A DNA stretch of 64,000 nucleotides from an uncultured Hyphomicrobiaceae bacterium (GCA_964461525.1 CAYWUX010000004.1:42488-106487), one strand, 5' to 3'. Shown: positions 14,066 to 59,902, counted from the first letter of the stretch. Notes: generated by a model not told the origin, from the letters alone. Numbers and translations: made by a program.

Positions 14066-14114
14066 ATTTTAGTTTCCGCTCATAAAAACTTTTTGAATTA
14101 GCCCGTTTCAGACG

Positions 14115-31699: not shown

Positions 31700-31732
31700 A
31701 ACGGTTTACTCGCCCAATTCAACACCAGAATA

Positions 31733-32086: not shown

Positions 32087-32322
32087 AGTTTTTCCTTCTG
32101 AAATCTCATCAACGACAATGAGCCAGGCCCCCTTGCAAATCAAACAGACGTTAACAAGAGCTTAGGCTGGAGGGCCGGCTACGGAACTCATTATCTTTCA
32201 TTTTATTCATTAGCTCATTTTATTATTGTATCCATTTAACTCAATTATCCAATTTTTTTTATAAAAAATCGAATTGAACGATTAAATTGACTAGTTAAAA
32301 TCTAGCAATTTGTGGGGTTTAA

Positions 32323-32626: not shown

Positions 32627-32628
32627 GA

Positions 32629-33558: not shown

Positions 33559-33578
33559 GATCAAGGAAATTCACATAA

Positions 33579-34607
33579 ATGACTGATCGTTTTGTCACCG
33601 CACCTGTCAATCCGCGTGTGGAAAAACTGTCTGAATTATGGGTGAACCTGGCCAGTCAGCGACTGGGTTCCCAGGTCCTGCTGGCAAGCGACGATTTTTT
33701 TGCGCCCAAAGAACGGCTGATCGATCCCAATACCCCTATATATGTTCCCGATAAATATGATGAGCATGGCAAATGGATGGACGGCTGGGAAAGTCGGCGT
33801 AGACGAACTCCCGGTCATGACTGGTGTATCATTAAACTCGGCTATCCCGGGCGTATAAAATTCATTGATATTGATACGAGCTTCTTTACCGGCAACTACG
33901 CTCCTCAAGCTTCGATCGATGCCTGCAATTCCAACATGGACATTCCCGGCGAGGATGATTGGCAGCCCTTGACTCCTATAACTGACCTTCTGGGGGATAC
34001 TCACAATTTTCTTGAAATTCAGAACGCCAATTTGTGGAGTCACTTGCGCCTCAATATTGTTCCAGACGGTGGCGTGGCCCGACTGCGCGTTTTCGGGGAG
34101 ATCGAAACGGACTGGTCAGAAAAAGATATTGGCCGCGAGGTCGATCTGGCATCACTGGTCAATGGTGCCAAAGCCATTGCCTGGAGTGATGCTCACTACG
34201 GCAGGCCCTCAAATATACTGGCTCCCACCCCGGGAAAGGATATGGGCGATGGCTGGGAAACGGCACGCAGGCGCGGTCCGGGTAACGACTGGTGCATAAT
34301 TAGATTGGCGGCCACGGGCATAATCGAAAAAATTCTGGTGGACACATCTTACTTCAAGGGAAATTATCCCAATTCCTGCATTATCCAGGCCTCCCATATT
34401 GAAGTAAATCTGGATGCCGAAGAAATTGCACAACAAAGCGCGGACTGGCCTGAGGTACTGCCCAGTCAGAAACTTGATGCCGACTGCGAACAAACATTTG
34501 ACACTGAAATAATCCACCACGAACCGGTCAATTATGTGAAACTCAGCATTTTTCCTGACGGAGGAATTTCAAGACTCCGTGTGTTCGGCAAAATAAGCAG
34601 GTTTTGA
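33579..34607 (+). CDS. alc: Allantoicase
   Basis: Two repeated allantoicase domains (DGWE.RRRR..GHDW.I..LG and DGWETARRRGPGNDWCIIRL). Confidence 0.9.
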   Translation: MTDRFVTAPVNPRVEKLSELWVNLASQRLGSQVLLASDDFFAPKERLIDPNTPIYVPDKYDEHGKWMDGWESRRRRTPGHDWCIIKLGYPGRIKFIDIDTSFFTGNYAPQASIDACNSNMDIPGEDDWQPLTPITDLLGDTHNFLEIQNANLWSHLRLNIVPDGGVARLRVFGEIETDWSEKDIGREVDLASLVNGAKAIAWSDAHYGRPSNILAPTPGKDMGDGWETARRRGPGNDWCIIRLAATGIIEKILVDTSYFKGNYPNSCIIQASHIEVNLDAEEIAQQSADWPEVLPSQKLDADCEQTFDTEIIHHEPVNYVKLSIFPDGGISRLRVFGKISRF

Positions 34608-34611
34608 TTAA

Positions 34612-35127
34612 ATGATCGCCAAAATAAATCCGGCTCCCCTCACACCAGGATCTTTTTCCACTTTTGGTGATGTCATCGAGACTAAAGACAGAACCGGATT
34701 CGAAATCAACGAGGGGACGACACTGCGTTTTGACGACCTCGCGGAGATCGATGTGTCGGATGGCGGTGGCAAGGCTGTTGTGAGCATTTTCAGGGGCCAA
34801 CCTCGAAGCTTTCCATTCGAAATTCGGATGCTGGAACGTCATCCATTGGGGTCACAGACTTTTATCCCGCTCTCGGGACGGACATATTTCGTTGTCGTCG
34901 CGGAGCAAAAAGACAGCGGCAGTCCCGGCAGAATGCACTGTTTCCTGGCAACAAAATCCCAGGGGGTTAACTACCGTAAAGGGATCTGGCACCACCCACT
35001 TATTGCTGTTGGAGGCGTCTCGGATTTTGTGGTCATCAATCGCTCGGGTCCGGGAGACAATCTCGAGGACACTGTGCTCTCAATGGAAGACCGCCGCATT
35101 CTGGTTAAACCGGAAGTCGAGTCCTGA
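34612..35127 (+). CDS. allA: Ureidoglycolate lyase
   Basis: PL....F..FG.VIE........IN.GT..RF.DLA..D.....G....SIFR......P.....LERHPLGSQ.F.PL matches the AllA family. Confidence 0.85.
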   Translation: MIAKINPAPLTPGSFSTFGDVIETKDRTGFEINEGTTLRFDDLAEIDVSDGGGKAVVSIFRGQPRSFPFEIRMLERHPLGSQTFIPLSGRTYFVVVAEQKDSGSPGRMHCFLATKSQGVNYRKGIWHHPLIAVGGVSDFVVINRSGPGDNLEDTVLSMEDRRILVKPEVES

Positions 35128-36681: not shown

Positions 36682-37665
36682 TCAGCTTGCCCGGGATAAA
36701 CAATCGACAAGAGATTTTCCATTATTGCGCATCATGTCGAAATAAAGATCTGGTCCAGGCACCAGATCCGCGCCTAAAGGATCTAACGTTGAAATTTGGA
36801 TTTGGCTGCCTTCTAAAAGAACCCTGAGGATCCTCGGATCGAACTGCGGCTCCGCAAACGCGCACAGCGGACGGAGCTTTGCAATCCTACGGCGCAACAA
36901 ACGAATTGTATCGGCACCGGGTCGGCGATCCGGACTGACAAGAACTGTATCTACTTTCGTCAGTTTGAATCGTTTTTCAAAATACTGGTAAGCATCGTGA
37001 AAGACAACGAGAGGACGATCTCTGACATGATCAAGTCCGGTTTCTAGATCTGTTTTCAGCTGTTCCAGGCGCTGTTCCACCTTTTCACCGTTCATCTGAT
37101 ACCGGGTGCTATTCTGGGGGTCGGCGGCCGAAACTCTTTTTACAATTTCGCCAATCATTTGTTTGGCATTCAGCGGATCCAGCCAGATGTGCATGTCAGA
37201 TTTTAACAGTTCATTTTTCACTGAAGTGAAATGATGGCGTCTGTTGTGTGTCGGATGATCGTTTTTGTCGTCAGACCAGAATGGCCGTAACCGGTTTTTA
37301 TATAATCGAAGCCGCCTGATATCGGTTAACGTAACCAATTCAGCTCGTTTTCCCATTGATGATATTGGTTTAACTAGAAAATATTCAAAATGAGGACCGA
37401 TCCAGAAAACGATATCAGCCCGTTCAAGAGCCTTGGCATCTGAAGGTTTGAGTTGGTAGGTATGAGGCGAGACCCCTGATCGAATAATCAGGTCAGGCTT
37501 GCCGACACCTTCCATTACTCCGGATACAAGTGAATGAAGTGGTCTGATGGTGACGGCCACATGCAATTCAGATGTTTCATTTGCATGCAGTGAACGTCCA
37601 GCTCTATAATCAAGACCGGTAGTGATTGCTATAAAGCACACGAAATATAACCAATATCTCAGCAT
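36682..37665 (-). CDS. znuA: Zinc ABC transporter substrate-binding protein
   Basis: Cluster A-I SBP with a His-rich loop (DDKNDHPTHNRRHHF). Divergent from znuCB-zur. Confidence 0.85.
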   Translation of the reverse strand: MLRYWLYFVCFIAITTGLDYRAGRSLHANETSELHVAVTIRPLHSLVSGVMEGVGKPDLIIRSGVSPHTYQLKPSDAKALERADIVFWIGPHFEYFLVKPISSMGKRAELVTLTDIRRLRLYKNRLRPFWSDDKNDHPTHNRRHHFTSVKNELLKSDMHIWLDPLNAKQMIGEIVKRVSAADPQNSTRYQMNGEKVEQRLEQLKTDLETGLDHVRDRPLVVFHDAYQYFEKRFKLTKVDTVLVSPDRRPGADTIRLLRRRIAKLRPLCAFAEPQFDPRILRVLLEGSQIQISTLDPLGADLVPGPDLYFDMMRNNGKSLVDCLSRAS

Positions 37666-37734
37666 GTTGGCCGGACCATCACCAATTGGATAACGAAAAG
37701 TAAATATATTTTTAATTGACTTGCTTGCTCAAGA

Positions 37735-37759
37735 ATATGTAACTTTATAACATTTATAT
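37735..37759. promoter_or_regulatory. Candidate Zur operator in the znuA/znuC divergent promoter
   Basis: AT-rich imperfect dyad ATATGTAAC-TTT-ATAACATTTAT between the divergent znuA and znuC starts. The consensus was not verified. Confidence 0.35.
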
Positions 37760-37805
37760 ATCATTGCAGTCAACGGCAGGATTAGTTCGTGAAATTTTCT
37801 GCAAA

Positions 37806-38663
37806 ATGGTCACAACTGACTTCAAAGACAAGGAAGCAGCTCATGGCGGTGGCAAGTTGAAACAAATTCAGACCGCGAATGACAAATCTGCAAATGAGGT
37901 CCTGGTTGACGCTGAAAGTGTTGGCGTACGCCGGTCCAATCGATGGTTGATACGGAATGTTTTCTTAAAGGTGAGGCGGCAGGAAATTATTGCACTGATC
38001 GGTCCCAATGGGAGCGGTAAAAGCACGACAGTCAAAGCCATTTTGGGTCTTTTAAAACTGGATGAAGGCCGGGTGTCGTCCAAACCGGGATTAACGGTTG
38101 GTTATGTGCCTCAACAATTGACAATTGACAATACCCTTCCCTTGACCGTTCGGCGACTCATGACGTTGACCTCTAACTACAGTTCCCAGGAAATCTCAGA
38201 TGCATTAGACATGGTGGGTGTCGCTCATTTAATTGGTGATCAGACATTTCAGCTCTCCGGGGGCGAGTTTCAACGCGTCATGATCGCCCGGGCCCTAATT
38301 CGCAAACCTGACCTTCTCGTGCTGGACGAACCCGTTCAAGGCGTCGATTTCGCAGGAGAAATTGCGCTATATAAGCTCCTTCGAAAAATTCGCGATTTAT
38401 ATGAATGCGGCATTATACTGATATCCCACGACCTGCATATGGTTATGGCAGAAACCGATACCGTCGTCTGTCTTAACGGTCATGTGTGCTGCTCCGGTAC
38501 GCCGCAACTCGTTGCAGAAAATCCAGAATACATAAAACTTTTTGGACCACGGGCAGCTGATGTTTTGGCCATTTATAGGCATGATCACGACCATACACAT
38601 GCCGCTGACGGTTCGGTCGTTCACGATCACGCAGAACCTTTAATTTACCGGGAGGAAAATTGA
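37806..38663 (+). CDS. znuC: Zinc ABC transporter ATP-binding protein
   Basis: Walker A GPNGSGKST, LSGGEFQRV, LLVLDEP. The C-terminal His-rich tail YRHDHDHTHA...HDH resembles E. coli ZnuC. ATG 37806 chosen; the ORF track starts at TTG 37764. Confidence 0.85.
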   Translation: MVTTDFKDKEAAHGGGKLKQIQTANDKSANEVLVDAESVGVRRSNRWLIRNVFLKVRRQEIIALIGPNGSGKSTTVKAILGLLKLDEGRVSSKPGLTVGYVPQQLTIDNTLPLTVRRLMTLTSNYSSQEISDALDMVGVAHLIGDQTFQLSGGEFQRVMIARALIRKPDLLVLDEPVQGVDFAGEIALYKLLRKIRDLYECGIILISHDLHMVMAETDTVVCLNGHVCCSGTPQLVAENPEYIKLFGPRAADVLAIYRHDHDHTHAADGSVVHDHAEPLIYREEN

Positions 38664-38664
38664 G

Positions 38665-39483
38665 GTGGACGACTTTTTCCTTCGCGCCCTGGTAGCAGGC
38701 TTAGGCATTGCAATAGTCGCAGGTCCTCTGGGATGTTTTGTCGTCTGGCAACGGATGTCCTATTTCGGTGCTACCATGTCACACAGTGCACTTCTCGGTG
38801 TAGCGACAGGTTTCCTGCTGGATATCAGTTTAATAGTTGGTGTTTTTATAGTCGCAACGATAACTGTACCGGCTCTGCTTATGTTTGAAAGAAGGACGAA
38901 TCTGCCGTCAGATACGATGCTCGGCATTCTTGCACACGGTACCCTGGCGCTTGGGCTGGTCCTTCTGTCTTATATGAGTTGGTTAAGAATTGATCTGATG
39001 GGTTACCTTTTTGGCGATATTCTCGCGGTTTCAGCATCGGATATCTTCAGCATATTTGCCGGAGCCGCAACCGTTCTCGCTATCCTCGTTTATATCTGGA
39101 GACCTTTGCTGGCCGGTACCGTTAACATGGATCTCGCCGAGGCCGAGGGTCTGAAACCTCGCCAGGCCAGATTTGTTCTCATGTTACTAATCGCAGCAAT
39201 CATCGCTCTCGCCATGAAAATAGTTGGTATTCTGCTGATTGTATCGCTTCTTATCATTCCTGCAGCAACGGCCCGCCACATGTCGGCAAATCCCGAACAA
39301 ATGGCAGTAGTGGCAGCGCTCCTTGGCTCACTCGCAACTATCACCGGTCTTTTTGGTTCGCTTGAATTTGACACACCTTCAGGGCCTTCAATCGTCTTAG
39401 CTTCGCTTGCATTCTTTTTGGTCAGCCTGTTACCATTGAAGAGACCATTTGACCGGCTCAAATTCACACAAGGCAACAATTGA
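38665..39483 (+). CDS. znuB: Zinc ABC transporter permease
   Basis: 272-aa polytopic protein of the ABC-3 family, directly following znuC. GTG start. Confidence 0.85.
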   Translation: MDDFFLRALVAGLGIAIVAGPLGCFVVWQRMSYFGATMSHSALLGVATGFLLDISLIVGVFIVATITVPALLMFERRTNLPSDTMLGILAHGTLALGLVLLSYMSWLRIDLMGYLFGDILAVSASDIFSIFAGAATVLAILVYIWRPLLAGTVNMDLAEAEGLKPRQARFVLMLLIAAIIALAMKIVGILLIVSLLIIPAATARHMSANPEQMAVVAALLGSLATITGLFGSLEFDTPSGPSIVLASLAFFLVSLLPLKRPFDRLKFTQGNN

Positions 39484-46702: not shown

Positions 46703-46777
46703 TGGAGCGGGCGATGAGATTTGAACTCACGACCCTCACGTTGGCAACGTGATGCTCTACCCCTGAGCTACGCCCGC
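46703..46777 (-). tRNA. tRNA-Gly (anticodon GCC)
   Basis: The reverse complement GCGGGCGTAGCTCAGGGGTAGAGCATCACGTTGCCAACGTGAGGGTCGTGAGTTCAAATCTCATCGCCCGCTCCA folds as a cloverleaf. Elements are a 7-bp acceptor stem, anticodon loop TTGCCAA, the TTCAAAT T-loop and an encoded CCA. Confidence 0.93.
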
Positions 46778-46936
46778 TTATTGGAAGAGGGTCCCGGCCT
46801 GATGCCGGATGCGGATTTATTACGCAATCGACCGCGCATTGCAACAATTTCTTTCAGTGCAGTTGAAACACCTGCATGGTTATTTAGCCAAAATTGCTTT
46901 CAGCTATGAAAAAATTATTTGCAATTGTCATAATAA

Positions 46937-46960
46937 TCCTATAGTCCTATAAATAGAACT
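46937..46960. promoter_or_regulatory. Candidate GntR/HutC operator upstream of the regulator gene
   Basis: Tandem TCCTATAG/TCCTATAA overlaps the imperfect dyad AGTCCTATA.AATAGAACT (7 of 9 arm positions pair), about 40 nt before the GTG at 47002. Confidence 0.3.
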
Positions 46961-47001: not shown

Positions 47002-47802
47002 GTGGCCGCCAATACTCAAAGTGCATTCAGGAATTCAAAGCCGGAAAGTCCGGCCCACAATACTGTCTACACCAAACAGGCAGGTTTCTCTGAAAAAAAC
47101 GGCACTCTTTACGTGCAGTTGGCCGGAATTTTGCGGCAGCGGATCCGGTCCGGTCAGTGGCAGCCCGGTACCCAGCTCCCGACACTCGACGATTTAAAGC
47201 ATGAATTTGGCGTTGCCCGGGTGACACTGCGTCAGGCCTTATCGGTCCTTGAATCCGAGGGACTGGTGTGGCGGCAACGTGGTCGCGGCACCTTCGTGTC
47301 TGAGCAGACTGAGGACAACTGGCTGAATATTGAATCGAACTGGGATCATCTGGTCCGCAGTCTGGAAGGCCGAAATCCCCGAATCATATCAGCCAGCAAT
47401 GATGCAATAGTACCAGGTCTCGATCAGATTCAGGCTGTTGCTTGTAAGTCTTATCGGCACATGCAACGTGTTCATGAATACCGGGGCAGGCCGTATGCCG
47501 TGATTGATATTTATCTTGATCAGGACCTTTATCAACTCGATAAAAAACATTTCGATCAGGAAATGGTCATTCCAAGACTGAAAAAGCTGAAGAATGTTGA
47601 AATTGCTGAAGCGTGGCAGACCATTACGATTGGCTCTGCAGACCAGGATGTCGCAACACATCTCGAAATCCCGATTGGTGCGCCCATCGGCGTTGTCCGG
47701 CGCATTATTACCGACACGGACGGCGCCGCAATTTACATCGGCGATTTGAACTATCGGGGAGACAGCGTGCGGCTCGATATTAAACTCACGAGGACTAGTT
47801 GA
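47002..47802 (+). CDS. GntR-family transcription regulator, HutC subfamily (UTRA effector domain)
   Basis: LYVQLAGILRQRI.SG.W..G..LPT...L..EFGVARVT.RQAL..L..EGL..R..GRGTFV, followed by a UTRA-like C-terminal domain. GTG start. Confidence 0.85.
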   Translation: MAANTQSAFRNSKPESPAHNTVYTKQAGFSEKNGTLYVQLAGILRQRIRSGQWQPGTQLPTLDDLKHEFGVARVTLRQALSVLESEGLVWRQRGRGTFVSEQTEDNWLNIESNWDHLVRSLEGRNPRIISASNDAIVPGLDQIQAVACKSYRHMQRVHEYRGRPYAVIDIYLDQDLYQLDKKHFDQEMVIPRLKKLKNVEIAEAWQTITIGSADQDVATHLEIPIGAPIGVVRRIITDTDGAAIYIGDLNYRGDSVRLDIKLTRTS

Positions 47803-47803
47803 A

Positions 47804-48643
47804 TTGGGCAGAACGGATCCCATTGACTCACCACCGGAAGGCCGCGACAACCAGGATATGCTCGCGGTTGAAGTGCATCGCGGAACAGAAGATGACAGCC
47901 GGTTCGATACCTTTTATGTTCCCATGAGCGAAAATCAGAGCGTGCTGGATGTCGTCACCCATATTCAGCGGTTTCTGGATCCGGGCCTCGCCTACCGATT
48001 TGCCTGTCGTGTTGGTGTGTGTGGTTCATGCGCCATGACAGTAAACGGGATACCCCGCTGGACCTGCCGAACACACGTCTCCAGGGTTTCCAGCAACGGG
48101 ACGCTCCGGATCGGACCCCTGAAGAATCTCCCTGTAATCCGGGATCTGGTAACGGACATGACCGATTTTTTTGAGAAATGGCAAAAGGCGCGGGGACGCT
48201 TTGTCGAACCATCGGATAGCGATACGGTTAGCGACAATTTGGGCAGTTCGACAACCGCCGCAAGTAACAAATCATTCCCGGTGCGGGGTGAAAACGGCCT
48301 GTACGTCATCCCGCCGGACGGCGCCGCACGGTCGGAGGCCAACGCTGCGATTGAATGCATAAATTGCGGTGTTTGTTATAGCGCCTGTGACGTTGTTCGC
48401 TGGCGTTCCGACTACTTTGGACCCGCCGCCCTGAATCGGGCCTGGGCAGCGCTTAATGATGAACGGGATGGCGACCACGAAGGTTTGCTGCGCATGATAT
48501 CCTCAAATGGCGGATGTCACAACTGCCATAGCCACCAGTCATGTGCAACCCATTGCCCCGTCGAACTCAATCCAACCCAATCAATCGCAGGTTTGAAGAA
48601 AGCCTCTGTAAAGGCGTCGTTTAGGGCCGGACGCCAGAAGTGA
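47804..48643 (+). CDS. Succinate dehydrogenase/fumarate reductase-type iron-sulfur subunit (divergent paralog)
   Basis: 2Fe-2S CRVGVCGSCAM...C, 4Fe-4S CINCGVCYSAC, third cluster CHNCHSHQSCATHCP. Start is uncertain (TTG 47804 or ATG 47858). Confidence 0.8.
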   Translation: MGRTDPIDSPPEGRDNQDMLAVEVHRGTEDDSRFDTFYVPMSENQSVLDVVTHIQRFLDPGLAYRFACRVGVCGSCAMTVNGIPRWTCRTHVSRVSSNGTLRIGPLKNLPVIRDLVTDMTDFFEKWQKARGRFVEPSDSDTVSDNLGSSTTAASNKSFPVRGENGLYVIPPDGAARSEANAAIECINCGVCYSACDVVRWRSDYFGPAALNRAWAALNDERDGDHEGLLRMISSNGGCHNCHSHQSCATHCPVELNPTQSIAGLKKASVKASFRAGRQK

Positions 48644-48683
48644 CTAGAAGGATCAAATCCATCGATAGTGGAGCAGCAGTGTA

Positions 48684-49013
48684 ATGAATATACGCTCTTA
48701 TTTGGTTCAAAGGATTTCCGCCATTGTCATGGTGCCCTTTGTCGTGACGCATCTGATCGTGATCATTCTTGCCGTTCAGAATGGATTGTCGGCAGAAGAA
48801 ATTCTGGGCCGGACTCGCGGCTCATTTGGCTGGGCAGTTTTTTATGGTGTATTTGTTCTGGCTGTTTCTGCGCATGCCGCAATTGGTGTTGAAACAGTGC
48901 TGACAGAATGGACAACCCTTCGGCAACGAAGTGCCACTCTTGTTGCTCACATATTCGGGTTTCTGTTGATCATTATTGGGCTCCGGGCCATTTTCGCGGT
49001 GATATCGCCATGA
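48684..49013 (+). CDS. SDH/FRD-type hydrophobic membrane anchor subunit
   Basis: 109 aa with three predicted TM helices and conserved-looking His residues (VVTHLIV, VSAHAAIG). Placed between the Fe-S and flavoprotein genes. Confidence 0.6.
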   Translation: MNIRSYLVQRISAIVMVPFVVTHLIVIILAVQNGLSAEEILGRTRGSFGWAVFYGVFVLAVSAHAAIGVETVLTEWTTLRQRSATLVAHIFGFLLIIIGLRAIFAVISP

Positions 49014-49369
49014 ATTACTCGACCCTGCGCAATAGTCCCTCACGATGGCACTGGGGTTTGGTTGCCGCAGTTGTTCATCGCCTTTCAGGTCTACTAATCG
49101 CCGTTTTTCTTCCCTTCCATTTTCTGTCACTCGGGCTGGCTTTTGAATCCGAAGCCTTCAGTGACTTCATCGCCTGGACGTCGAACCCTCTGGTAAAGAT
49201 ATCCGAATTTTTTCTGGTTGCCGCTCTCGCTGTTCATTTCGCCGGCGGATTAAGGATTCTTGCCCTTGAATTCCTGCAGTTCAGCAAGGCTCAGTCTTTT
49301 TTCATCTCCCTAAGTTTTGCGGTATCTATTGTCGTCGGACTGCTGTTTTTGTTGAGTGTGTTCAGCTAG
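49010..49369 (+). CDS. SDH/FRD-type cytochrome b-like membrane anchor subunit
   Basis: 119 aa starting at the ATGA overlap with the previous gene. Three TM helices and His in VVHRLSG and LAVHFAGG. Confidence 0.6.
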   Translation: MNYSTLRNSPSRWHWGLVAAVVHRLSGLLIAVFLPFHFLSLGLAFESEAFSDFIAWTSNPLVKISEFFLVAALAVHFAGGLRILALEFLQFSKAQSFFISLSFAVSIVVGLLFLLSVFS

Positions 49370-49392
49370 AGTATAACAAATTGGATTTGGTC

Positions 49393-51144
49393 ATGAATCG
49401 GCTGCAATCAGATATATTGATAATAGGAGCTGGAGGAGCCGGACTCTTTGCGGCTTTGCATGCCTATGACGCCAATCCTGATCTCAATATCACCATCGCC
49501 GTAAAGGGATTGCTCGGCAAAAGTGGCTGTACCCGCATGGTCCAGGGCGGGTACAACGTTGCCATGGCCAAAGAGGATTCGATTGAGCGGCATTTTATGG
49601 ACACCATTGTGGGCGGCAAATGGCTGCCCAATCAGGATCTCGCCTGGAAACTTGTCAATGGAGCGATTGACCGGATCATAGAACTGGAAAACCGTTATGG
49701 TTGCTACTTTGACAGAAATCCCGATGGCACGCTTCATCAGAAAGCTTTTGCCGGTCAGAGTTTTGACCGAACCGTTCATAAGGGCGACCTCACTGGAATT
49801 GAAATCGTCAATCGGCTCGCCGAACAGGTATGGAGCCGCCGCATAAATCGTCTCGAAGAGTATAGGGCTATAGCGTTTATTCCAACCAGGGATAAGCAAT
49901 CGATTGCCGGTGTTTTAAATATTAACATGCGAAATGGAGAGTACTGCTTCGTCCAGGCAAAATGCGTTCTGATCGCGGCCGGCGGCGGGCCTACCATGTA
50001 CCGGTATCACACTCCGTCAGGCGACAAGTCATGCGATGGAATGGCGATGGCTTTACGGGCTGGGCTTACCCTCCGGGATATGGAGATGGTCCAGTTCCAC
50101 CCCACGGGATTACTGGCGGGCGACAATACGCGTATGACCGGGACGATTCTGGAGGAGGGGCTGAGGGGTTCCGGCGGGTACCTCCTCAACGGGAATGGTG
50201 AACGCTTTATGCACAATTACGATCCCGCTGGTGAACGCGCCACACGGGATATTGTATCCCGTTCCATGTATGAAGAAGTGCGTTCCGGCCGCGGAACCAG
50301 AAATGGCGGCCTGTATATAAGAATGGCGCATCTCGGCCCCGAAAATGTTGCAAAGCAGTTCAAAGGCATGGTCAAACGCTGTGCCGATTGCGGATTTGAT
50401 CTCGCGGCGGGAAATGTCGAGGTTTTGCCCACCGCACATTATATGATGGGTGGCATAGAATTTAACGGTGACTGCTCAACTGAGCTCGAAGGTCTTTTTG
50501 CGGCCGGAGAGGATACCGGCGGCGTTCACGGAGCCAATCGGCTGGGCGGAAACGGAGTTGGCAATTCAACCGTATTCGGCGCAGTTGCCGGTGATAGTAT
50601 GGCAGACGCATTAACAAAACCAACGGCGTTCCGCGAACCGGATGAAAGCGAAATCAACCGGCATGTAGACCGTTGCGAGAAACCGTTTAAACTGGCTGCT
50701 GGAGACCTTAACGGATTGCGTGAAGATTTGATGGATGTCATGTGGGAACAGGTTGGCATCATTCGTTCGGAAAAACAGCTTCAGAGTGCGATTGACAAAC
50801 TCGATGACCTTGAGAATCGACTTGGCAGTACAGGACTGCCGATTCAACAGCGCTCCTTCAATCTGACGTGGCACGACTGGCTCAATCTTGAAAATCAGAT
50901 TATGGTTTCAAAGGCAATTGCACACTCCGCCTTGATGCGAAAGGACTCCAGGGGCGCACACTATCGAAGTGATTATCCCGATACCCTGGATCTGGAAAAC
51001 AGTTCCTACACTACTGTTCGTCTTGGGACTGACGAAAGTCCGAATATCGGGAACAAGCCAGTTGTCTTTACAATTGTTAAACCCGGTCAGTCACTGATTG
51101 AAGGTGAGGCCGGTGCACCAGTCGTCAATACGGCTGAAAATTGA
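49393..51144 (+). CDS. SDH/FRD-type flavoprotein subunit (divergent paralog; lacks the FAD-linking His)
   Basis: Motifs present: the dinucleotide fold DILIIGAGGAG, QFHPTG, EGLRGSGGYLLN, AHYMMGGI and GANRLGGN. The position equivalent to SHT(V)xAQGG reads GCTRMVQGG. Confidence 0.85.
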   Translation: MNRLQSDILIIGAGGAGLFAALHAYDANPDLNITIAVKGLLGKSGCTRMVQGGYNVAMAKEDSIERHFMDTIVGGKWLPNQDLAWKLVNGAIDRIIELENRYGCYFDRNPDGTLHQKAFAGQSFDRTVHKGDLTGIEIVNRLAEQVWSRRINRLEEYRAIAFIPTRDKQSIAGVLNINMRNGEYCFVQAKCVLIAAGGGPTMYRYHTPSGDKSCDGMAMALRAGLTLRDMEMVQFHPTGLLAGDNTRMTGTILEEGLRGSGGYLLNGNGERFMHNYDPAGERATRDIVSRSMYEEVRSGRGTRNGGLYIRMAHLGPENVAKQFKGMVKRCADCGFDLAAGNVEVLPTAHYMMGGIEFNGDCSTELEGLFAAGEDTGGVHGANRLGGNGVGNSTVFGAVAGDSMADALTKPTAFREPDESEINRHVDRCEKPFKLAAGDLNGLREDLMDVMWEQVGIIRSEKQLQSAIDKLDDLENRLGSTGLPIQQRSFNLTWHDWLNLENQIMVSKAIAHSALMRKDSRGAHYRSDYPDTLDLENSSYTTVRLGTDESPNIGNKPVVFTIVKPGQSLIEGEAGAPVVNTAEN

Positions 51145-51210
51145 GCGGTATGCATAAATACACGTTCTGTTGGATTACTATCTGAAAAAGTTCGATTGTG
51201 ATCGAAAGCG

Positions 51211-52191
51211 ATGAGGAAAGCCATGAAAATTTCGGCCGATAAACTCGAAGAAGCAGCATATCAAATCATGTTTAAAGCTTCAATTGACATTCCGGAGGAC
51301 TATGAAAATGGAATCCGGAAAATGATCGATAAGGAAAAGGGAGACCTTTCCGCATTCGTGCTGGAAGCCATGCTTGAAAACTGGCAAGCGGCCCGAGAGG
51401 ATCGCCGTCCCATGTGTGCGGATACGGGCGTGCCCCGGTTTTATGTCAAATGCGGCAATGAAGCCATGCCCGAAGGTGGATTTGTCGAGCTCGAACACCG
51501 GATTCGCCGGGCGACAGCACGGTCCACGCACGACATACCACTGCGTCCAAATCGGGTGCATCCGATTTCGAGACACGACAACAATAACAATGTTGGTCTG
51601 AATGCTCCGGAAATTGAATATAGCTTTGAACCTGACGTCGACTGGATAGAACTGACCACAGTTCACAAGGGCGGGCTTTTTGGCACCGACTACCGCATGC
51701 TTTTTCCCGGTGATGGCGTAGATGGAATAAAACGGTTCTTTCTGGATGTTCTGCTGGCATTTGGCAAACGGGGACTGGCCTGTCAGCCGGCCATAGTCGG
51801 TGTTGGTCTGGGCGGCTCCAAGGACACCTGCATGGTCCTTGGAAAACAGGCCGCATGTCTGAGACCCGTGGGCGAACCGCATCCTGATCCGGAAATAGCC
51901 CGATTGGAAGTGGAACTCCGCGAACTCGGCAACCAAACCGGGCTTGGTGCCATGGGGTTTTCAGGAACTTCGACTGTCGTCGACTGCCAGATCGAAGTTG
52001 GTTATACGCACACTGGCGGTTGTCCCATGTCGGTTCACTGTTTCTGCCTTTCATCGCGTCGTGCCACAGCGCGTATCCACCGGGATGGCAAAATTGAATA
52101 TCGCACTGATCCCAAATGGTTCACCCCCTATATGAGAAGGAATTCCGTGTCATGGGAATCTACAGAGATAAACTCAAGAATGTCCGGATAA
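51211..52191 (+). CDS. Fe-S type hydro-lyase alpha subunit (tartrate/fumarate subfamily)
   Basis: PMCADTGVP, ACQPAIVGVGLGG and a third Cys region (GGCPMSVHC), typical of class I fumarase / TtdA N-terminal domains. Confidence 0.8.
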   Translation: MRKAMKISADKLEEAAYQIMFKASIDIPEDYENGIRKMIDKEKGDLSAFVLEAMLENWQAAREDRRPMCADTGVPRFYVKCGNEAMPEGGFVELEHRIRRATARSTHDIPLRPNRVHPISRHDNNNNVGLNAPEIEYSFEPDVDWIELTTVHKGGLFGTDYRMLFPGDGVDGIKRFFLDVLLAFGKRGLACQPAIVGVGLGGSKDTCMVLGKQAACLRPVGEPHPDPEIARLEVELRELGNQTGLGAMGFSGTSTVVDCQIEVGYTHTGGCPMSVHCFCLSSRRATARIHRDGKIEYRTDPKWFTPYMRRNSVSWESTEINSRMSG

Positions 52192-52832
52192 AAACACCGG
52201 TTTCAGATGAAGATTTAAAGGAACTCGAAATCGGTACCGTCGTCTTTCTGGACGGTATGATTTATACTGGTCGTGAAGGTGTCTACAAACGGTTTGTCGA
52301 GCAGGGCGAAAGACCTCCGATAGACTTCACAAAATATTCGAATGTCAATTTTCATTGCTCACCAGCCGCGGCCAAACAGCCCGATGGCAGCTTTAAAGTC
52401 GGTGCAGTTACGGCAACGGCAAGTTTTCGATTCGCAAAAGTGCTGCCCCAGTGGTTGCGCGATACCGGATGCCGGATGCTGATTGGCAAAGGTGGAATGA
52501 AAACCGAACATTACCGCGACATTCTGGTGCCGGCCGGAGTGGTCTATCTGACCACAGTTGGATATGGAACCGGAGCGTTACTTGGCCGGGGGATCAAAAA
52601 GGTGAAGGCCGTCAACTGGCTGGAAGAGCTTGGCGTTGCCCAGGCTATGTGGATTTTCGAAGTCGAGAATTTTGGACCTCTACTTGTTGAATGTGACCTT
52701 AAGGGAAATAGCCTGTTCGAGAAAAACAATGAAGAAACGAACAAGCGCGTCGAAAAACTATATGAGGGATTGCGGCCCCCTGCGCTCAGCCGATATGGTG
52801 AGACGGACAATAAAAAAGACGAACTAATTTAG
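52152..52832 (+). CDS. Fe-S type hydro-lyase beta subunit (tartrate/fumarate subfamily, divergent)
   Basis: IGKGGM and VVYLTTVGYGTGALL, plus the overall TtdB/FumA C-terminal layout. Start is uncertain; ATG 52152 overlaps the alpha gene by 40 nt. Confidence 0.7.
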   Translation: MGIYRDKLKNVRIKTPVSDEDLKELEIGTVVFLDGMIYTGREGVYKRFVEQGERPPIDFTKYSNVNFHCSPAAAKQPDGSFKVGAVTATASFRFAKVLPQWLRDTGCRMLIGKGGMKTEHYRDILVPAGVVYLTTVGYGTGALLGRGIKKVKAVNWLEELGVAQAMWIFEVENFGPLLVECDLKGNSLFEKNNEETNKRVEKLYEGLRPPALSRYGETDNKKDELI

Positions 52833-52914
52833 TTGATTAATGTAAACGTGGAAAATATACACTCAAGTTCGAAAACTTTTTAATATTATTAATATATCCT
52901 GACACTTTATACCA

Positions 52915-54081
52915 ATGAGAATTACCAACATTCGCGACGCCGTCGGGTCCATCCAATCCGATATTCGAAATGCCTTCATTTCGTTCAGGGACATGACCAT
53001 CTCGGTAGTTGCTGTTGAAACCGATGTCATCCGTGACGGACAACCGGTCATCGGTTATGGTTTCACATCCAACGGCCGCTATGCCCAATCCTCCATTTTG
53101 CGCGAGCGGTTTATTCCGCGCCTTTCGGCGGCAGATCCAAATTCCCTGATTGACAATGTAAATAAAAACTTTGATCCCGATGCTATCTGGAAGTGTTTTA
53201 TGGCCAATGAAAAACCAGGGGGTCATGGCGATCGTGCTCATGCCGCGGGTGCGCTTGATATGGCGATTTGGGATGTTATTTCCAAAGTTAGTGAAAAACC
53301 ACTTTGGAAACTTCTTTCCGAACGTTTCAATGAGAACAATTACGATGAAAGAATTCTAGTTTATCCAGGTGGCGGATACTATTACCCGGGTAAAGAAATC
53401 GAGGGTTTACGGGCTGAAATGGCCGGCTACCGGGATGCCGGCTATAAGGTGGTCAAAATGAAAATTGGCGGTGCTGATTTAACCACCGATTTGAAACGTA
53501 TTGAAGCCGTTATCGATATCGCGGGAGAAGGTGCGAATGTCGCGGTTGATGCCAACGGCCGTTTCAATCTTGAGCAGGCTCTGGCATACGGCAAAGCGAT
53601 GTCAGACTATGAACTTTTCTGGTATGAAGAGCCGGGTGATCCGCTGGATTTTCAACTCAACAGCGAACTGGCCATGAAATACCAGCAACCACTGGCCACA
53701 GGTGAAAATTTATTTTCACATCAAGATGGTCTGAACCTTCTGCGATATGGCGGGTTAAGAGCTGAAAAGGACTGGATCCAGATTGATCCGGCTCTCGCTT
53801 ACGGACTGACGGATTATCTCAAATTCATATCGTTCATTGATAAGCTGAACTGGTCGAGACGCCGCCTTATTCCACATGGCGGACATCAGTTTGCTCTTAA
53901 TATTGCCGCGGGTCTTCAGCTCGGAGGATCCGAATCCTATCCAGGCGTTTTTCAGCCCTTTGGCGGTTTTGCAGACAATATTCCAATTATTGAAGGATAT
54001 ACCAGTCTCCATCAGACTCCTGGAATCGGCATTGAACTGAAACTGGAAATGTTCGATAAACTGCGTTCGTATTTATTCTGA
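52915..54081 (+). CDS. Enolase-superfamily enzyme, mandelate racemase subgroup, D-tartrate dehydratase (TarD)-like
   Basis: KxK (VVKMKIGG), metal ligands VDANGRF / FWYEEPGDP / ATGENLF, and a D/H dyad (IQIDP, PHGGHQ). The overall sequence recalls Bradyrhizobium TarD from memory. Confidence 0.7.
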   Translation: MRITNIRDAVGSIQSDIRNAFISFRDMTISVVAVETDVIRDGQPVIGYGFTSNGRYAQSSILRERFIPRLSAADPNSLIDNVNKNFDPDAIWKCFMANEKPGGHGDRAHAAGALDMAIWDVISKVSEKPLWKLLSERFNENNYDERILVYPGGGYYYPGKEIEGLRAEMAGYRDAGYKVVKMKIGGADLTTDLKRIEAVIDIAGEGANVAVDANGRFNLEQALAYGKAMSDYELFWYEEPGDPLDFQLNSELAMKYQQPLATGENLFSHQDGLNLLRYGGLRAEKDWIQIDPALAYGLTDYLKFISFIDKLNWSRRRLIPHGGHQFALNIAAGLQLGGSESYPGVFQPFGGFADNIPIIEGYTSLHQTPGIGIELKLEMFDKLRSYLF

Positions 54082-54147
54082 TCTTTTTATGATTTACCTG
54101 TGACACCGTATTTCCCAATGAATGCCACATGATGTTAGGCTCGATCC

Positions 54148-55080
54148 ATGGCGAAGATTGTTATTTCCGAACAGATGCACAAGGAGGCTGTCGAAAGTCT
54201 TGAGCAGGAATTTGACGTCATTTTTGATGCTTCACTTTGGAAAAGCCCGAACCGACTTGCCGAAAATTTGGGCTCGGCAGATGCGTTGATCGTTCGCAAT
54301 TCAACTCAGGTCGATTCCGAGATATTAAATGCTTCTCCTCAGCTCAGGGTGATAGGCCGGCTAGGTGTCGGACTTGACAATATTGATTTGAATATGTGCT
54401 CTGAACGCGGGATTACGGTCTGTCCGGCGACAGGAGCGAATGCGATATCAGTGGCTGAGTATGTTATTACCACCGCCCTTGTCCTGTTGCGCGGCGCCTA
54501 CTTTGCAACCGACCAGGTAATCGGTGGAACTTGGCCACGATATGAACTGATCGGTAGAGAACTGAACGGCAAAACTCTGGGAATCATTGGTTTCGGATCA
54601 ATCGGTCAACAGGTTGGGATGTTGGCGAAGGCCATGCATTTGGAAGTCATAACGTATGACCCCCTGCCACCTAAGGATGATTCCCTGGCACAGGTTGTAC
54701 GGCGCGTGAATTTCGATCAGGTCATATCCCAAAGTGATATTGTCACCCTCCATGTTCCGCTTACTTCCGAAACTTCAAATCTGATCAATGCCGCCACCAT
54801 TTCGAAAATGCGAAAGGGAGCGATATTCATCAATACGTCGCGAGGTGGAATTGTCGATGAACAGGCACTCATCGATGCCTTGATTTCGGGTCATCTAGCG
54901 GGAGCCGCAATCGATGTATTTAAAGACGAACCATTGGATGGGAATTCGGGCGGGCGGTTTGTTAACGCGCCGAACTTAATACTGACGCCTCATATTTCTG
55001 GAGTAACAGAAGAATCCAACGCCCGAGTGAGCTTTGTGACTGCGGAAAACGTGCGCCGAATACTCATTGACCCACTTTGA
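54148..55080 (+). CDS. D-isomer-specific 2-hydroxyacid dehydrogenase (PGDH-like)
   Basis: NAD fold GIIGFGSIGQ. Catalytic region INTSRGG.VDE and TPHISG. Confidence 0.85.
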   Translation: MAKIVISEQMHKEAVESLEQEFDVIFDASLWKSPNRLAENLGSADALIVRNSTQVDSEILNASPQLRVIGRLGVGLDNIDLNMCSERGITVCPATGANAISVAEYVITTALVLLRGAYFATDQVIGGTWPRYELIGRELNGKTLGIIGFGSIGQQVGMLAKAMHLEVITYDPLPPKDDSLAQVVRRVNFDQVISQSDIVTLHVPLTSETSNLINAATISKMRKGAIFINTSRGGIVDEQALIDALISGHLAGAAIDVFKDEPLDGNSGGRFVNAPNLILTPHISGVTEESNARVSFVTAENVRRILIDPL

Positions 55081-57302: not shown

Positions 57303-58601
57303 TTATGAATTCGTTTGGTCGGCCGCAAGCCGACTGAGCGGTTTTTCATTGATTGGTATGTGGACCAGACCTGCAAAAACACCGAGACCGACTGCAATCC
57401 ACCAAACCATTTCATATGATCCGCTGGTATCGAATATCCGGCCGCCCAGCCAGGCGCCCATAAACGAACCGGTCTGATGGCTGAGCTGTACGATACCATA
57501 CAATGTAGCCATATATCTCAGGCCAAATATTTGTGCGACAATCCCTGACGTCAGCGGGATCGTGGACAACCACAACAGCCCCATTACGGCTGAAAATACA
57601 AATATGGTCGTATTGGTTTTGGGAGCCAGAATTAATATTGTAATGGCCACGGCACGGCTAAAATATATAAAACTCAAAGCTCTTTTCTTCGGCCAGCGCT
57701 GTCCGGCCATTCCGGACAAGAACGAGCCGATGATGTTGAAGAGGCCAACCAGCGAAAGCGCATAGGCCCCAGTCTCAGCTGAAAGACCGATATCATGAAT
57801 ATAAGCAGGAAAATGTATCGATATAAATGCGACGTGAAAACCGCAAACAAAAAAGCCGCTGATCAGAAGAATATATCCCTTATGGCCTGACGCTTCAGAC
57901 AGCGCCTCGCTCAGAGACTGACGCCTTACATTCGCCTCGGCTCTGCTGTCATCTATCCGGGGAATTGATAGCGCAACCGGGACGATAATAAGAGCCGTCA
58001 CCGCCAGAATATATAGCGCGGCCTGCCAACCATAATTGACGATGAACGCTTGTCCAAGAGGCGTGAACAAGACCTGACCGAAAGATCCGACCGAAGTCCC
58101 GAGTCCGAGGACCATTGACCGCTTTTCCGTACTGACAAATTTTACCATGGTTGAAAGTGAGACGGAAAATGCTGTGAATGAAACGCCTGTGCCGACCAGA
58201 ATACCCGCGAAAATCATCAGGCCGACGGGGCCCTGTGAATGGGGAATTCCCCAGATTCCGGCAGCATATAAAAGCCCGCCTAAACCAAGAGCGCGGCGCG
58301 CTCCGAATCGATCTGTAATCGCGCCCGACAGCGGGGCAAATATGCCTATGACGAGATTCTGCACTGCCAGAGCAAGTGCAAATGTCTCTCTCGACCAATT
58401 GTTAGCGGTTGTTATGGGTTCGAGAAACAACCCAAAAGTTGTGCGCAGACCAAAACTCAGCATGCCGATCAGGCATCCAGCGATTATAACCAGTATGACT
58501 ACATGCGGCGCATAAGTTCGTTCTGTCAGTTGAATTTCAGCCATGATTGTCCGGCAATCCAGCAGTTGCGATGCTAAACTCAATTCCAGATCGAATAACA
58601 A
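57303..58601 (-). CDS. MFS transporter
   Basis: 12-TM layout with the GAITDRFGARR loop motif. The likely true start is the internal ATG at 58544 (MAEIQL...). Confidence 0.8.
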   Translation of the reverse strand: MLFDLELSLASQLLDCRTIMAEIQLTERTYAPHVVILVIIAGCLIGMLSFGLRTTFGLFLEPITTANNWSRETFALALAVQNLVIGIFAPLSGAITDRFGARRALGLGGLLYAAGIWGIPHSQGPVGLMIFAGILVGTGVSFTAFSVSLSTMVKFVSTEKRSMVLGLGTSVGSFGQVLFTPLGQAFIVNYGWQAALYILAVTALIIVPVALSIPRIDDSRAEANVRRQSLSEALSEASGHKGYILLISGFFVCGFHVAFISIHFPAYIHDIGLSAETGAYALSLVGLFNIIGSFLSGMAGQRWPKKRALSFIYFSRAVAITILILAPKTNTTIFVFSAVMGLLWLSTIPLTSGIVAQIFGLRYMATLYGIVQLSHQTGSFMGAWLGGRIFDTSGSYEMVWWIAVGLGVFAGLVHIPINEKPLSRLAADQTNS

Positions 58602-58654
58602 CAGATCAGGAAATGCGGCCTTATGAATTATTTAATTTTAAATTTTCAATTCAG

Positions 58655-59902
58655 CTAGAGTTTTTCACCTTTCAAAAGACGCGGCACGTCTCCTGAAAGG
58701 CCGGATGCCCCTTTCACTAGAAATTGTTTAATTGCAGGTGAACGGTTAACCAGACCAAGACCAATTTCCCTTGCGGCTCGAACCGGCAGAATGTCGTTCG
58801 AAAAAAGACGATTAAGTCCATCCATAAAAAATGCGGAAAAGGCACTGTCAAATCTGCGCCACCTTTGATAACGTTCAAGACCAGTGAAATCTCCAATGTC
58901 AATTCCAAGTCTTGAATTGTCGATCAACACTTCCGTCAGGGCCGCCACGTCACGTAATCCTATATTCAGTCCAAGACCTGCAATCGGATGAACGCCATGC
59001 GCGGAATCGCCAACAAGGACAAATCTCGGTCCTATGAATTCTCTCGCGATATGCATTGTCAACGGTACGCCAAAGCGTGGGCCTATCAGCTCAAGTTCAC
59101 CCAACCGGGGGCCGAAGCGCCGCTCGAGTTCTTCGATAAACAAGGCCTCATCCTCATCTAGCAGTTTTTTTGCAACCTTCGTGTTTTCGGTCCAGACCAA
59201 AGATGACCGATTTCCCTTTAATGGTAGAATGGCGAATGGTCCTGCTGGCAGAAAATGCTGAACTGCCCGGCCATTGTGTGGCCTTTCATGTGCCACAGTG
59301 GTCACGATTCCCATTTGACCATAGGACCAGGAAACTGTTTTTATGCCGGAGACTTTACGAAGAGACGAGTTCCGCCCGTCGGCGGCGACCAGCAACCTGG
59401 TTTTCAATTGTCCGCCACTCTCCAGCAGAACCCTGACATAATGATTCTCCTTTCCAAACCCCTTGACTTTTTGTTTGGCAATTAAATCAATATTTGGGTC
59501 AACCGAGGCCTTTGCAGCCAATGCGGTGGCGAGATGATGATTTTCAATCATGTAAGAAGCAGATTTTCCCGGTGCCAGTTCACTTTTAATTTGTAAAAAT
59601 ATTGGTCGGACAGTGACATCCATTGGACTGTCCGTTATGTCTATATCAGTGATGGGCTGGACATTGTTTTCGAGGGTCTGCCATATTTCGAGAACAGTAA
59701 GCAGATCCTTACTGGCCGCATTCAGTGCAACGGCCTGACCAGAAAAACGGTGAACGATCAGATCATCATAGGAACGGGGATCGAGAACGCATACCTTCAA
59801 TGTCTTATCGCTGCTTTGGGATAACGCGGAAGCCAACGCAAGACCAGTAAAACTGCCTCCGGCAATGATTACATCATAGACATTGATTTCAAAACGACTC
59901 AT
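58655..59902 (-). CDS. FAD-dependent ubiquinone-biosynthesis hydroxylase (UbiH/UbiF/VisC/COQ6 family)
   Basis: DVIIAGGSFTGLALA dinucleotide fold, ADGRNS, GDSAHGVHPIAGLGLNIGLRD. Confidence 0.85.
   Translation of the reverse strand: MSRFEINVYDVIIAGGSFTGLALASALSQSSDKTLKVCVLDPRSYDDLIVHRFSGQAVALNAASKDLLTVLEIWQTLENNVQPITDIDITDSPMDVTVRPIFLQIKSELAPGKSASYMIENHHLATALAAKASVDPNIDLIAKQKVKGFGKENHYVRVLLESGGQLKTRLLVAADGRNSSLRKVSGIKTVSWSYGQMGIVTTVAHERPHNGRAVQHFLPAGPFAILPLKGNRSSLVWTENTKVAKKLLDEDEALFIEELERRFGPRLGELELIGPRFGVPLTMHIAREFIGPRFVLVGDSAHGVHPIAGLGLNIGLRDVAALTEVLIDNSRLGIDIGDFTGLERYQRWRRFDSAFSAFFMDGLNRLFSNDILPVRAAREIGLGLVNRSPAIKQFLVKGASGLSGDVPRLLKGEKL

Follow-up and report, generated by a model that had tools for sequence, protein, structure and literature searches.

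A complex-II-like dehydrogenase paired with a fumarase-type hydro-lyase in a Hyphomicrobiaceae operon: a candidate trimmed copy of an organosulfonate-catabolic island

We analysed an operon at positions 47002-55080 on the plus strand of a 64,000-nt stretch of DNA (hereafter, the window) from an uncultured Hyphomicrobiaceae bacterium (GCA_964461525.1, CAYWUX010000004.1:42488-106487). The operon encodes a GntR-type regulator, a divergent four-subunit complex related to succinate dehydrogenase (SDH) and fumarate reductase, a two-subunit iron-sulfur (Fe-S) hydro-lyase (HylAB), an ortholog of the enolase-superfamily enzyme TarD, and a D-2-hydroxyacid dehydrogenase. The genes for the complex and the hydro-lyase form a six-gene core that recurs in many Proteobacteria, often beside genes for sulfonate and sulfite metabolism. 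With roughly even confidence, we read the operon as a shortened copy of an organosulfonate-catabolic island that is itself widespread; its most likely substrate would be 3-sulfopropanoate.

The six-gene core and its proteins

The Fe-S subunit (B), the two membrane anchors (D and C), the flavoprotein (A) and HylAB are encoded syntenically across alpha-, beta- and gammaproteobacteria. Relatives were found in at least 599 species genomes (one genome per species was scanned, and 599 of the 600 pattern matches were confirmed), and in the best 80 loci the six genes were almost always present together. The genetic lock between the SDH paralog and the hydro-lyase, which a sequence-only reading of the window had proposed, thus holds in the related loci, and the order it described (Fe-S subunit, anchor, anchor, flavoprotein) recurs in essentially all of them. 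Two arrangements were distinguished. The alpha-type, to which the window belongs, reads B-D-C-A-HylA-HylB, with HylA 63-85% identical to that of the window, and the beta-type reads B-D-C-(0-7 kb)-HylA'-HylB'-A, with a hydro-lyase about 35% identical. The whole nine-gene arrangement did not recur as a unit; what recurs is the six-gene core with variable organosulfonate genes. The nine-gene block was therefore rejected as the conserved unit in favour of the core, because its joint occurrence with GntR, TarD and the dehydrogenase is confined to the window's closest clade.

The module was carried by plasmids in Pseudomonas (where the plasmid is conjugative), Methylobacterium, Paracoccus, Sulfitobacter and Cupriavidus, and in six or more genera in all, which argues for an accessory role distinct from that of a housekeeping complex II. 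The reading as a housekeeping SDH was likewise rejected on the protein level: the flavoprotein lacks the FAD-linking His, and the tests on the active-site Thr and on equivalog models fail as well. A protein sequence identical to that of the Yoonia locus was found in 127 blocks of a public assembly collection, with a Tara Oceans source tag. A plasmid of the haloarchaeon Natribaculum luteum (locus L102, 5512-12480) encodes the Fe-S subunit and a flavoprotein that retains the Cys motif, but neither the anchors nor the hydro-lyase. This two-gene version adjoins SuyAB-like genes, TauE and an argininosuccinate-lyase-family gene. The last passes the argH cut-off, so it may be incidental, and we do not claim it as a replacement hydratase. 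On Paracoccus versutus pTAV3 (L083, 940-1697), a second, separate sdhC/sdhD pair was observed about 10 kb from the module, with no sdhA/sdhB next to it in the segment covered.

The flavoprotein has the FAD_binding_2 and Succ_DH_flav_C domains of SdhA and FrdA and aligns to Escherichia coli FrdA with about 290 bits. None of the NCBIfam equivalog cut-offs for SdhA, FrdA, TfrA and NadB was reached. The best match was TfrA (529 bits, cut-off 718), and the scores were 445 bits for the SdhA/FrdA subfamily model sdhA_frdA_Gneg (cut-off 567) and 348 bits for the NadB model (cut-off 453). The earlier description of these genes as a divergent, uncharacterised SDH/FRD paralog is borne out by these scores. 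In FrdA, His44 forms the 8-alpha-N3-histidyl link to flavin adenine dinucleotide (FAD), Thr244 hydrogen-bonds the substrate, and a set of His and Arg residues binds the dicarboxylate. Alignment of the window protein to E. coli FrdA placed Cys50 at the position of His44 and Glu258 at that of Thr244 (SdhA Thr254), with an active-site loop 6 residues longer. This signature of Cys, Glu and longer loop was invariant in 69 family members, and the Cys motif GK[CS]GCTRMVQGG was present in those 69 and in 14 further loci, including that of a haloarchaeon. The dicarboxylate-binding residues are retained: H240, R289, H353 and R387 correspond to FrdA H232, R287, H355 and R390 and are invariant.

The Fe-S subunit contains the three Cys cluster motifs of an SdhB-type protein (Cx4Cx2Cx11C, Cx2Cx2Cx3C and Cx2Cx5Cx3CP, read in the translation) and is accompanied by two Sdh_cyt subunits, as expected of a complex II; both anchors keep their position in related loci. 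At 279 aa it is longer than its homologs (237-250 aa) owing to an insertion of about 30-36 residues. The insertion is Ser/Thr/Asp-rich and lies at about residues 137-185, between the 2Fe-2S and ferredoxin-like domains, and an additional Cys is present in the final Cys motif. The module thus shares with SdhCDAB and FrdABCD the four subunits, the flavoprotein domains, the three Cys motifs and the two anchors, and differs from them in its B-D-C-A gene order, its pairing with an Fe-S hydro-lyase, its frequent location on plasmids and its proximity to sulfite-handling genes. Tricarballylate dehydrogenase, TcuAB, is also built on an SdhA/FrdA-family flavoprotein; it converts a succinate-like acid to an enoate, and its partner passes the electrons to the membrane. 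This is a precedent for substrate shifts in the superfamily; TcuB is a different kind of partner, and TcuAB is not known to be coupled to a hydro-lyase.

HylA and HylB resemble class I fumarase and TtdAB in having Fumerase and Fumerase_C domains on separate subunits and in the cluster cysteines. HylA scored 200 bits against 7xky_A, the alpha chain of a fumarate hydratase, with the three cluster Cys positions in register, and HylB aligned to the second chain of 7xky (111 bits) and also to 5dni and 2isb. The pair differs from these enzymes in being embedded in an SDH-like operon and in missing their equivalog cut-offs (fumarate hydratase, 212 vs 276 bits; TtdA, 163 vs 365; TtdB, 123 vs 264); HylB misses all NCBIfam cut-offs. 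The substrate-binding motif of HylB is TATASFRF, compared with GPTTSARM in solved fumarases and GTTTS[AD]RM in the betaproteobacterial-type beta subunits. The window HylAB falls into one ortholog group with the hydro-lyases from sulfite contexts, whose alpha subunits are 63-80% identical to its own and whose beta subunits share the TATASFRF motif.

Sulfonate-related genes around the core

Neighbouring open reading frames (ORFs) were clustered with frame-GC filtering, and reference proteins were scored by tblastn, in 80 loci of at least 10 kb. Genes were counted as sulfonate-linked if they were TauE/SafE or YeiH, sulfite dehydrogenase, two-subunit SuyAB-like, ComDE-, CuyA- or HpsN-like, or TauD. 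As raw frequencies, 56 of the 80 loci had a sulfonate-linked gene within 10 kb of the core, and 36 had TauE, YeiH or sulfite dehydrogenase. The corresponding figures were 35 and 23 for the 42 beta-type loci, and 16 and 9 for the 29 loci of the window's alpha type. The commonest other neighbours were tripartite tricarboxylate transporters (TTT; 41/80), Ldh_2 (35/80), a thiamine-pyrophosphate (TPP) enzyme like acetolactate synthase or 2-hydroxyacyl-CoA lyase (24/80), and D-2-hydroxyacid dehydrogenase (20/80).

Individual loci place the core inside clusters of this kind. On a plasmid of Pseudomonas sp. MPC6, the order is LysR, TTT, TauE, porin, core, MmsA, NIPSNAP, YeiH, and sulfite oxidase with cytochrome c, and MmsA (695 bits, over the cut-off of 448) directly abuts HylB. 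In Methylobacterium nodulans a sulfite dehydrogenase set stands on either side of the core, together with DctA, YeiH and TauE, and the Yoonia locus reads core, NIPSNAP, TauE, TTT. Paracoccus species also carry the module beside TauE. On a Marivita sp. contig (L106), a sulfite-oxidase-family gene (Oxidored_molyb and Mo-co_dimer, 13447-14553) overlaps the HylB stop, and after it come a TPP enzyme, TauE and TTT; this overlap was the tightest genetic link between the core and sulfite that we observed. In L097, split TPP genes scored best with the models of the sulfopyruvate decarboxylase subunits (ComDE-like, under the cut-off) and lie with TauE beside the GntR gene and the core, and in L098 a CuyA-like gene, with D-cysteate sulfo-lyase as its best model (340 bits, cut-off 450), separates the Fe-S gene from the anchor genes. 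The closest relatives of the window, with 73-75% flavoprotein identity, prolong its operon with SuyA/SuyB-like, TarD-like, D-2-hydroxyacid dehydrogenase and Ldh_2 genes, to which L090 further adds a histidinol-dehydrogenase-family (HpsN-like) gene and YeiH.

Full-length TPP enzymes are encoded beside the core in L004 (2257-3903), L082 (7323-8924), L106 (14550-16112) and about 20 other loci. Identification as Xsc was rejected, as the Xsc scores were 162-176 bits against cut-offs of 620-676, and the best models were of the acetolactate synthase and 2-hydroxyacyl-CoA lyase types. The enzyme could decarboxylate sulfopyruvate or act in desulfonation. In L092, a decarboxylase dependent on pyridoxal phosphate (MfnA/glutamate decarboxylase types, 13509-14774) lies directly 3' of the core on the opposite strand; an acidic sulfonated amino acid could be its substrate, with taurine or homotaurine as the product. 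On a plasmid of Sulfitobacter sp. THAF37 (L082, 24409-25581), a gene annotated as 3-sulfinopropanoyl-CoA desulfinase was found about 11 kb from the module. This annotation hints at nearby metabolism of 3-sulfinopropanoate, a C3 sulfur analogue of succinate.

The D-2-hydroxyacid dehydrogenase of the window scored 308 bits with the PGDH model, under its cut-off of 454, and has no ACT domain. It carries PF00389 and PF02826, the domain pair of SlcC (PMC12421959, Table S2), and is 49-52% identical to the dehydrogenases paired with Ldh_2 in L083, L090, L094 and L101. Neither an Ldh_2 (ComC-type) gene nor SuyAB genes were found in the window, and the pairing of an SlcC-type enzyme with Ldh_2 is present in its relatives. 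From its domains and relatives, the window dehydrogenase is best read as SlcC-like. In the same source, ComC is PF02615, SuyB is PF20629 with PF04295, and the regulator is GntR with UTRA (PMC12421959), and the accessory families near the core are exactly the Pfam families of SlcC, ComC, SuyB and this regulator. The window shares the GntR/UTRA regulator and the SlcC-type dehydrogenase with the SuyR-SlcHFG-SlcC-ComC-SuyAB cluster of Chromohalobacter salexigens and Paracoccus, and its closest relatives add Ldh_2, a SAF plus GD_AH lyase, TTT and sulfate/sulfite exporters. It differs from that cluster in having no SuyAB, ComC, transporter or exporter, and in having the SDH-like complex and the Fe-S hydro-lyase, both of which are absent from the known sulfolactate cluster.

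For the enolase-superfamily protein, the suggested relation to TarD was confirmed as true orthology. Over its full length it is about 60% identical to Bradyrhizobium Bll6730 (PDB 2dw6/2dw7), and it scored 528 bits to 4kem. Its acid/base residues (KxK and the His-Asp dyad) and its three metal ligands are all conserved, within VVKMKIGG (KxK), VDANG, WYEE, TGEN, QID and PHGGH. The copies in the window's clade and in Paracoccus aestuarii sit among SuyAB-, SlcC-, ComC- and YeiH-like genes. TarD orthologs 55-68% identical to that of the window were observed inside operons of SuyB-like, TTT, 2-hydroxyacid dehydrogenase, Ldh_2 and YeiH genes, at 1-8164 in L101, 18776-21767 in L090 and 15359-18482 in L094, and also in L001 and L002. 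L101 is the P. aestuarii plasmid p296221, where TarD lies in a sulfonate-type operon without the SDH-like module. These contexts suggest that part of the TarD family may have a second, sulfonate-related role. An MR/MLE neighbour in Sulfitobacter was rejected as a TarD ortholog, with 28% identity.

Proposed reactions and competing substrates

In 3-sulfopropanoate, one carboxylate of succinate is replaced by a sulfonate, so that a complex-II-like step and a fumarase-like step would give sulfoacrylate and then sulfolactate. The core would comprise a membrane-bound, quinone-linked dehydrogenase that converts a sulfonated succinate analogue to the enoate, most likely 3-sulfopropanoate to 3-sulfoacrylate, with the electrons going to the quinone pool, followed by the two-subunit Fe-S hydro-lyase. 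Addition of water at C2 would yield 3-sulfolactate. Addition at the sulfonated carbon would produce an unstable alpha-hydroxysulfonate that would fall apart to malonate semialdehyde and sulfite, an option for loci with sulfite-handling genes and no SuyAB, and the MmsA gene of the Pseudomonas operon fits a malonate semialdehyde product. The two hydro-lyase types, with their different beta motifs, may differ in the position of hydration. The known fates of sulfolactate (SuyAB; SlcC/ComC to sulfopyruvate and then ComDE; the cysteate route with CuyA) are all represented beside the core across genomes, and in relatives sulfolactate could be passed on to the SuyAB-like sulfo-lyase, the SlcC/ComC-like pair, the ComDE-like decarboxylase or the CuyA-like lyase. 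Sulfite would be exported or oxidised by TauE, YeiH and sulfite dehydrogenase. Downstream of the core, the window operon has just the TarD ortholog and the SlcC-type dehydrogenase. The TarD ortholog may be a D-tartrate dehydratase carried along, or may eliminate sulfite from a 2-hydroxy-3-sulfo acid.

A more ambitious version of this proposal is put forward tentatively and with some doubt. It holds that the Cys-flavin complex (thioether-linked or non-covalent), together with an Fe-S "sulfoacrylate hydratase", is the missing aerobic pathway for mineralisation of 3-sulfopropanoate and, through it, of homotaurine and related C3 sulfonates, with the TarD-type enzymes of these islands as a new class of sulfo-lyase for 2-hydroxy-3-sulfo acids. 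The pathway would be a quinone-coupled sulfonate copy of the succinate-fumarate-malate segment of the tricarboxylic acid (TCA) cycle, occurring widely in marine bacteria of the Roseobacter group, in Betaproteobacteria and even in haloarchaea.

Organosulfonates are major currencies of the sulfur cycle. Homotaurine is one source of 3-sulfopropanoate, and anaerobes also form it from dihydroxypropanesulfonate. The degradation of 3-sulfopropanoate by bacteria had not previously been reported according to a 2024 paper (PMC11489063). A thesis, as cited there, describes homotaurine breakdown in Roseovarius nubinhibens via 3-sulfopropanoate, sulfoacrylate and sulfolactate; R. nubinhibens ISM was not among our best-120 match lists. 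Bilophila wadsworthia is mentioned in a January 2026 review as able to use 3-sulfopropanoate as a terminal electron acceptor, and the review also takes up how the compound is broken down in this organism. A full-text literature search found no paper assigning the module or naming enzymes that degrade 3-sulfopropanoate, and the module offers concrete candidate genes for this gap in the sulfur cycle. If the proposal is true, the complex II and class I fumarase families would be extended to sulfonated substrates, complex II would gain a naturally occurring variant that lacks the histidyl-flavin bond, and widespread annotations as "L-aspartate oxidase", "fumarate reductase" and "fumarate hydratase" would be corrected. 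It would also explain a cluster of "fumarate and tartrate metabolism" with a TauE homolog that is induced in Paracoccus wurundjeri on a sulfosugar, and that the authors of that proteome left unexplained, provided that this cluster is the module.

Several observations weigh against 3-sulfopropanoate oxidation. Substrate, direction, products and regulation are all inferred by genomic association, and the neighbour counts do not measure enrichment over the genome background. About 45% of the alpha-type loci have no recognised sulfonate gene within 10 kb, and neither TauE, sulfite dehydrogenase nor SuyAB was found in the annotated 64 kb around the operon, in the flanks of which lie genes for purine catabolism, zinc uptake and the cell wall along with other unrelated ones, and none for sulfur. 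Genes for an aminotransferase and an aldehyde dehydrogenase, which would lead from homotaurine to 3-sulfopropanoate, are rare near the core. The histidyl-FAD link is needed for succinate oxidation, as seen in His44 mutants of E. coli FrdA. The window flavoprotein has no such link, and its flavin, if non-covalent, would be better suited to reduction than to oxidation; a thioether link to the invariant Cys, or a substrate couple of lower potential, would lift this objection. A Glu near the anionic group of the substrate is not obviously suited to a sulfonate. Finally, the induced P. wurundjeri cluster (cluster 3) is a candidate match to the module, and the inducing substrate yields sulfolactate rather than 3-sulfopropanoate.

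The sequence-only reading had proposed for the locus a candidate tartrate or C4-dicarboxylate module leading to succinate. TarD and the hydro-lyase would form oxaloacetate or fumarate and the complex would serve as a dedicated fumarate reductase, or it would oxidise a substituted succinate such as methylsuccinate. The strong TarD orthology, the membership of the hydro-lyase in the TtdAB/class I fumarase family, the missing FAD-linking His, which recalls reductase-type enzymes, and the four retained FrdA carboxylate-binding His/Arg positions all speak for such a role. Yet TarD lies beside the core in only five of the 80 loci, the window included, and is limited there to the window's own small clade. 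The hydro-lyase falls short of the fumarate hydratase, TtdA and TtdB cut-offs and has an altered beta-subunit motif, and many of the hosts are aerobes, which would send oxaloacetate straight to the TCA cycle. Neither the tartrate logic nor a fermentative fumarate reductase explains the tie to sulfite exporters, sulfite dehydrogenases and sulfolactate enzymes, and we regard this route as very unlikely. For the TarD gene itself a tartrate link is kept alive, because orthologs elsewhere adjoin tartrate dehydrogenase (L087, L089, L100); others adjoin C4-dicarboxylate TRAP transporters.

Two further substrates would share the sulfur context. Sulfosuccinate, as a xenobiotic or a sulfite-fumarate adduct, might be oxidised to sulfofumarate and hydrated either to oxaloacetate and sulfite or to 3-sulfomalate, from which a TarD- or SuyAB-like enzyme would eliminate sulfite, for catabolism or for repair of an adduct that would poison true SDH. 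This would give the TarD ortholog a natural role and is consistent with the retention of both FrdA carboxylate-binding pairs, with TTT as the commonest neighbour and with the DctA-type carrier in M. nodulans, although TTT systems also carry sulfolactate. Repair would also fit the co-location with varied sulfite-releasing enzymes and the sulfosugar induction, if the induced cluster is the module. The neighbours, however, are C3-sulfonate enzymes (SuyAB, SlcC/ComC, ComDE-, CuyA- and HpsN-like), MmsA in the Pseudomonas operon fits malonate semialdehyde and not oxaloacetate, and no such pathway was found in the literature search; we consider sulfosuccinate unlikely. A direct action of the core on sulfolactate or cysteate is, in our judgement, decidedly unlikely. 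Here, a quinone-linked, NadB-like dehydrogenase would form sulfopyruvate, or an aconitase-like hydro-lyase would turn sulfolactate into sulfoacrylate by loss of water and add water back at the sulfonated carbon, with release of sulfite. Oxidation of a C-O or C-N bond would be in keeping with a non-covalent or Cys-linked flavin and Glu in place of the Thr, ComDE-like genes stand beside the core in L097, and many alpha-type loci have sulfite-handling genes and no SuyAB; the Paracoccus induction on a sulfolactate-yielding sugar would fit as well, if cluster 3 is the module. A role for the dehydrogenase only would leave the hydro-lyase, its tightest-linked partner, without a job, many loci already pair the core with soluble dehydrogenases of the SlcC/ComC type, and the fumarate/succinate-type binding set is complete in the flavoprotein.

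Gene boundaries, regulator and surroundings

The nine plus-strand ORFs were recovered at the positions given before, and their families were assigned by Pfam and NCBIfam. The tight packing holds, including the one-base gap between the GntR stop and the next start at 47804 and the ATGA overlap of the anchor genes at 49010-49013. Revised starts were taken from gene calls on the identical metagenome contig L081; that of the flavoprotein is probably the ATG at 49393. The remaining spacings had been given as gaps of 11-82 nt, which is right except for HylA and HylB, which overlap by 40 nt with the HylB start at 52152. The tRNA-Gly upstream boundary stands. The gap before the downstream thioredoxin-like ORF (start 55350) is present as well, with a length of about 270 nt rather than about 300 nt. 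Terminator-like matches inside the operon were no commoner than in shuffled sequence.

Positions of the operon genes, the upstream elements and the boundary tRNA gene in the window
Feature	Position	Strand	Evidence
tRNA-Gly(GCC)	46703-46777	-	ARAGORN; upstream boundary, outside the module
Promoter-like TTTGCA-16-TATAGT	46918-46945	+	Promoter scan; scan overall not above shuffles
Operator-like imperfect palindrome GTCCTAT-AA-ATAGAAC	46944-46960	+	Sequence; about 40 nt 5' of the GntR start
GntR+UTRA regulator, HutC type	47002-47802	+	Pfam GntR 73 bits, UTRA 57 bits
SdhB/FrdB-like Fe-S subunit	47804-48643	+	Fer2_3 97 bits; TIGR00384 178 bits (over cut-off 88)
SdhD-like membrane anchor	48684-49013	+	Sdh_cyt 29 bits; TIGR02968 34.7 bits (cut-off 41.8)
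SdhC/cytochrome b556-like membrane anchor	49010-49369	+	Sdh_cyt 40 bits; TIGR02970 50 bits (cut-off 52.3)
SdhA/FrdA-like flavoprotein	49393-51144 (ORF from 49381)	+	FAD_binding_2 238 bits; Succ_DH_flav_C 98 bits
Fe-S hydro-lyase alpha (HylA)	51223-52191 (ORF from 51211)	+	Fumerase 235 bits; TIGR00722 226 bits (over cut-off 100.65)
Fe-S hydro-lyase beta (HylB)	52152-52832	+	Fumerase_C 89 bits
TarD ortholog, MR/MLE enolase superfamily	52915-54081	+	487 bits to Bll6730
D-2-hydroxyacid dehydrogenase	54148-55080	+	2-Hacid_dh_C 194 bits; 2-Hacid_dh 103 bits

The regulator has the N-terminal GntR helix-turn-helix and C-terminal UTRA domain of the HutC subfamily, and the same operon begins with an ortholog of 41-53% identity in L001, L002, L090, L092, L094, L097 and L098. 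The sulfolactate-cluster regulator of P. wurundjeri has the same GntR and UTRA domain pair (PMC12421959). A regulator site had been proposed at 46937-46960, and this segment does hold the imperfect palindrome, which overlaps the promoter-like -10 element. A similar palindrome was found 5' of the GntR gene in five relatives (L094, L090, L092, L001 and L002). The GntR/UTRA protein probably represses the operon by binding there.

No transporter is encoded in the cluster, as noted before. The nearest candidate in the window is an MFS gene in a minus-strand pair with a FAD_binding_3 monooxygenase-type gene (57303-59902), about 2 kb 3' of the operon, and nothing ties this MFS gene to the operon. A purine-catabolism block at 27843-35127 includes subunits of a xanthine-dehydrogenase-type molybdoenzyme (27843-31699, minus strand), allantoicase (33579-34607) and ureidoglycolate lyase (34612-35127). 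Divergent ZnuA-, ABC ATPase- and ABC-3 permease-type genes at 36682-39483 make up a zinc/manganese uptake system.

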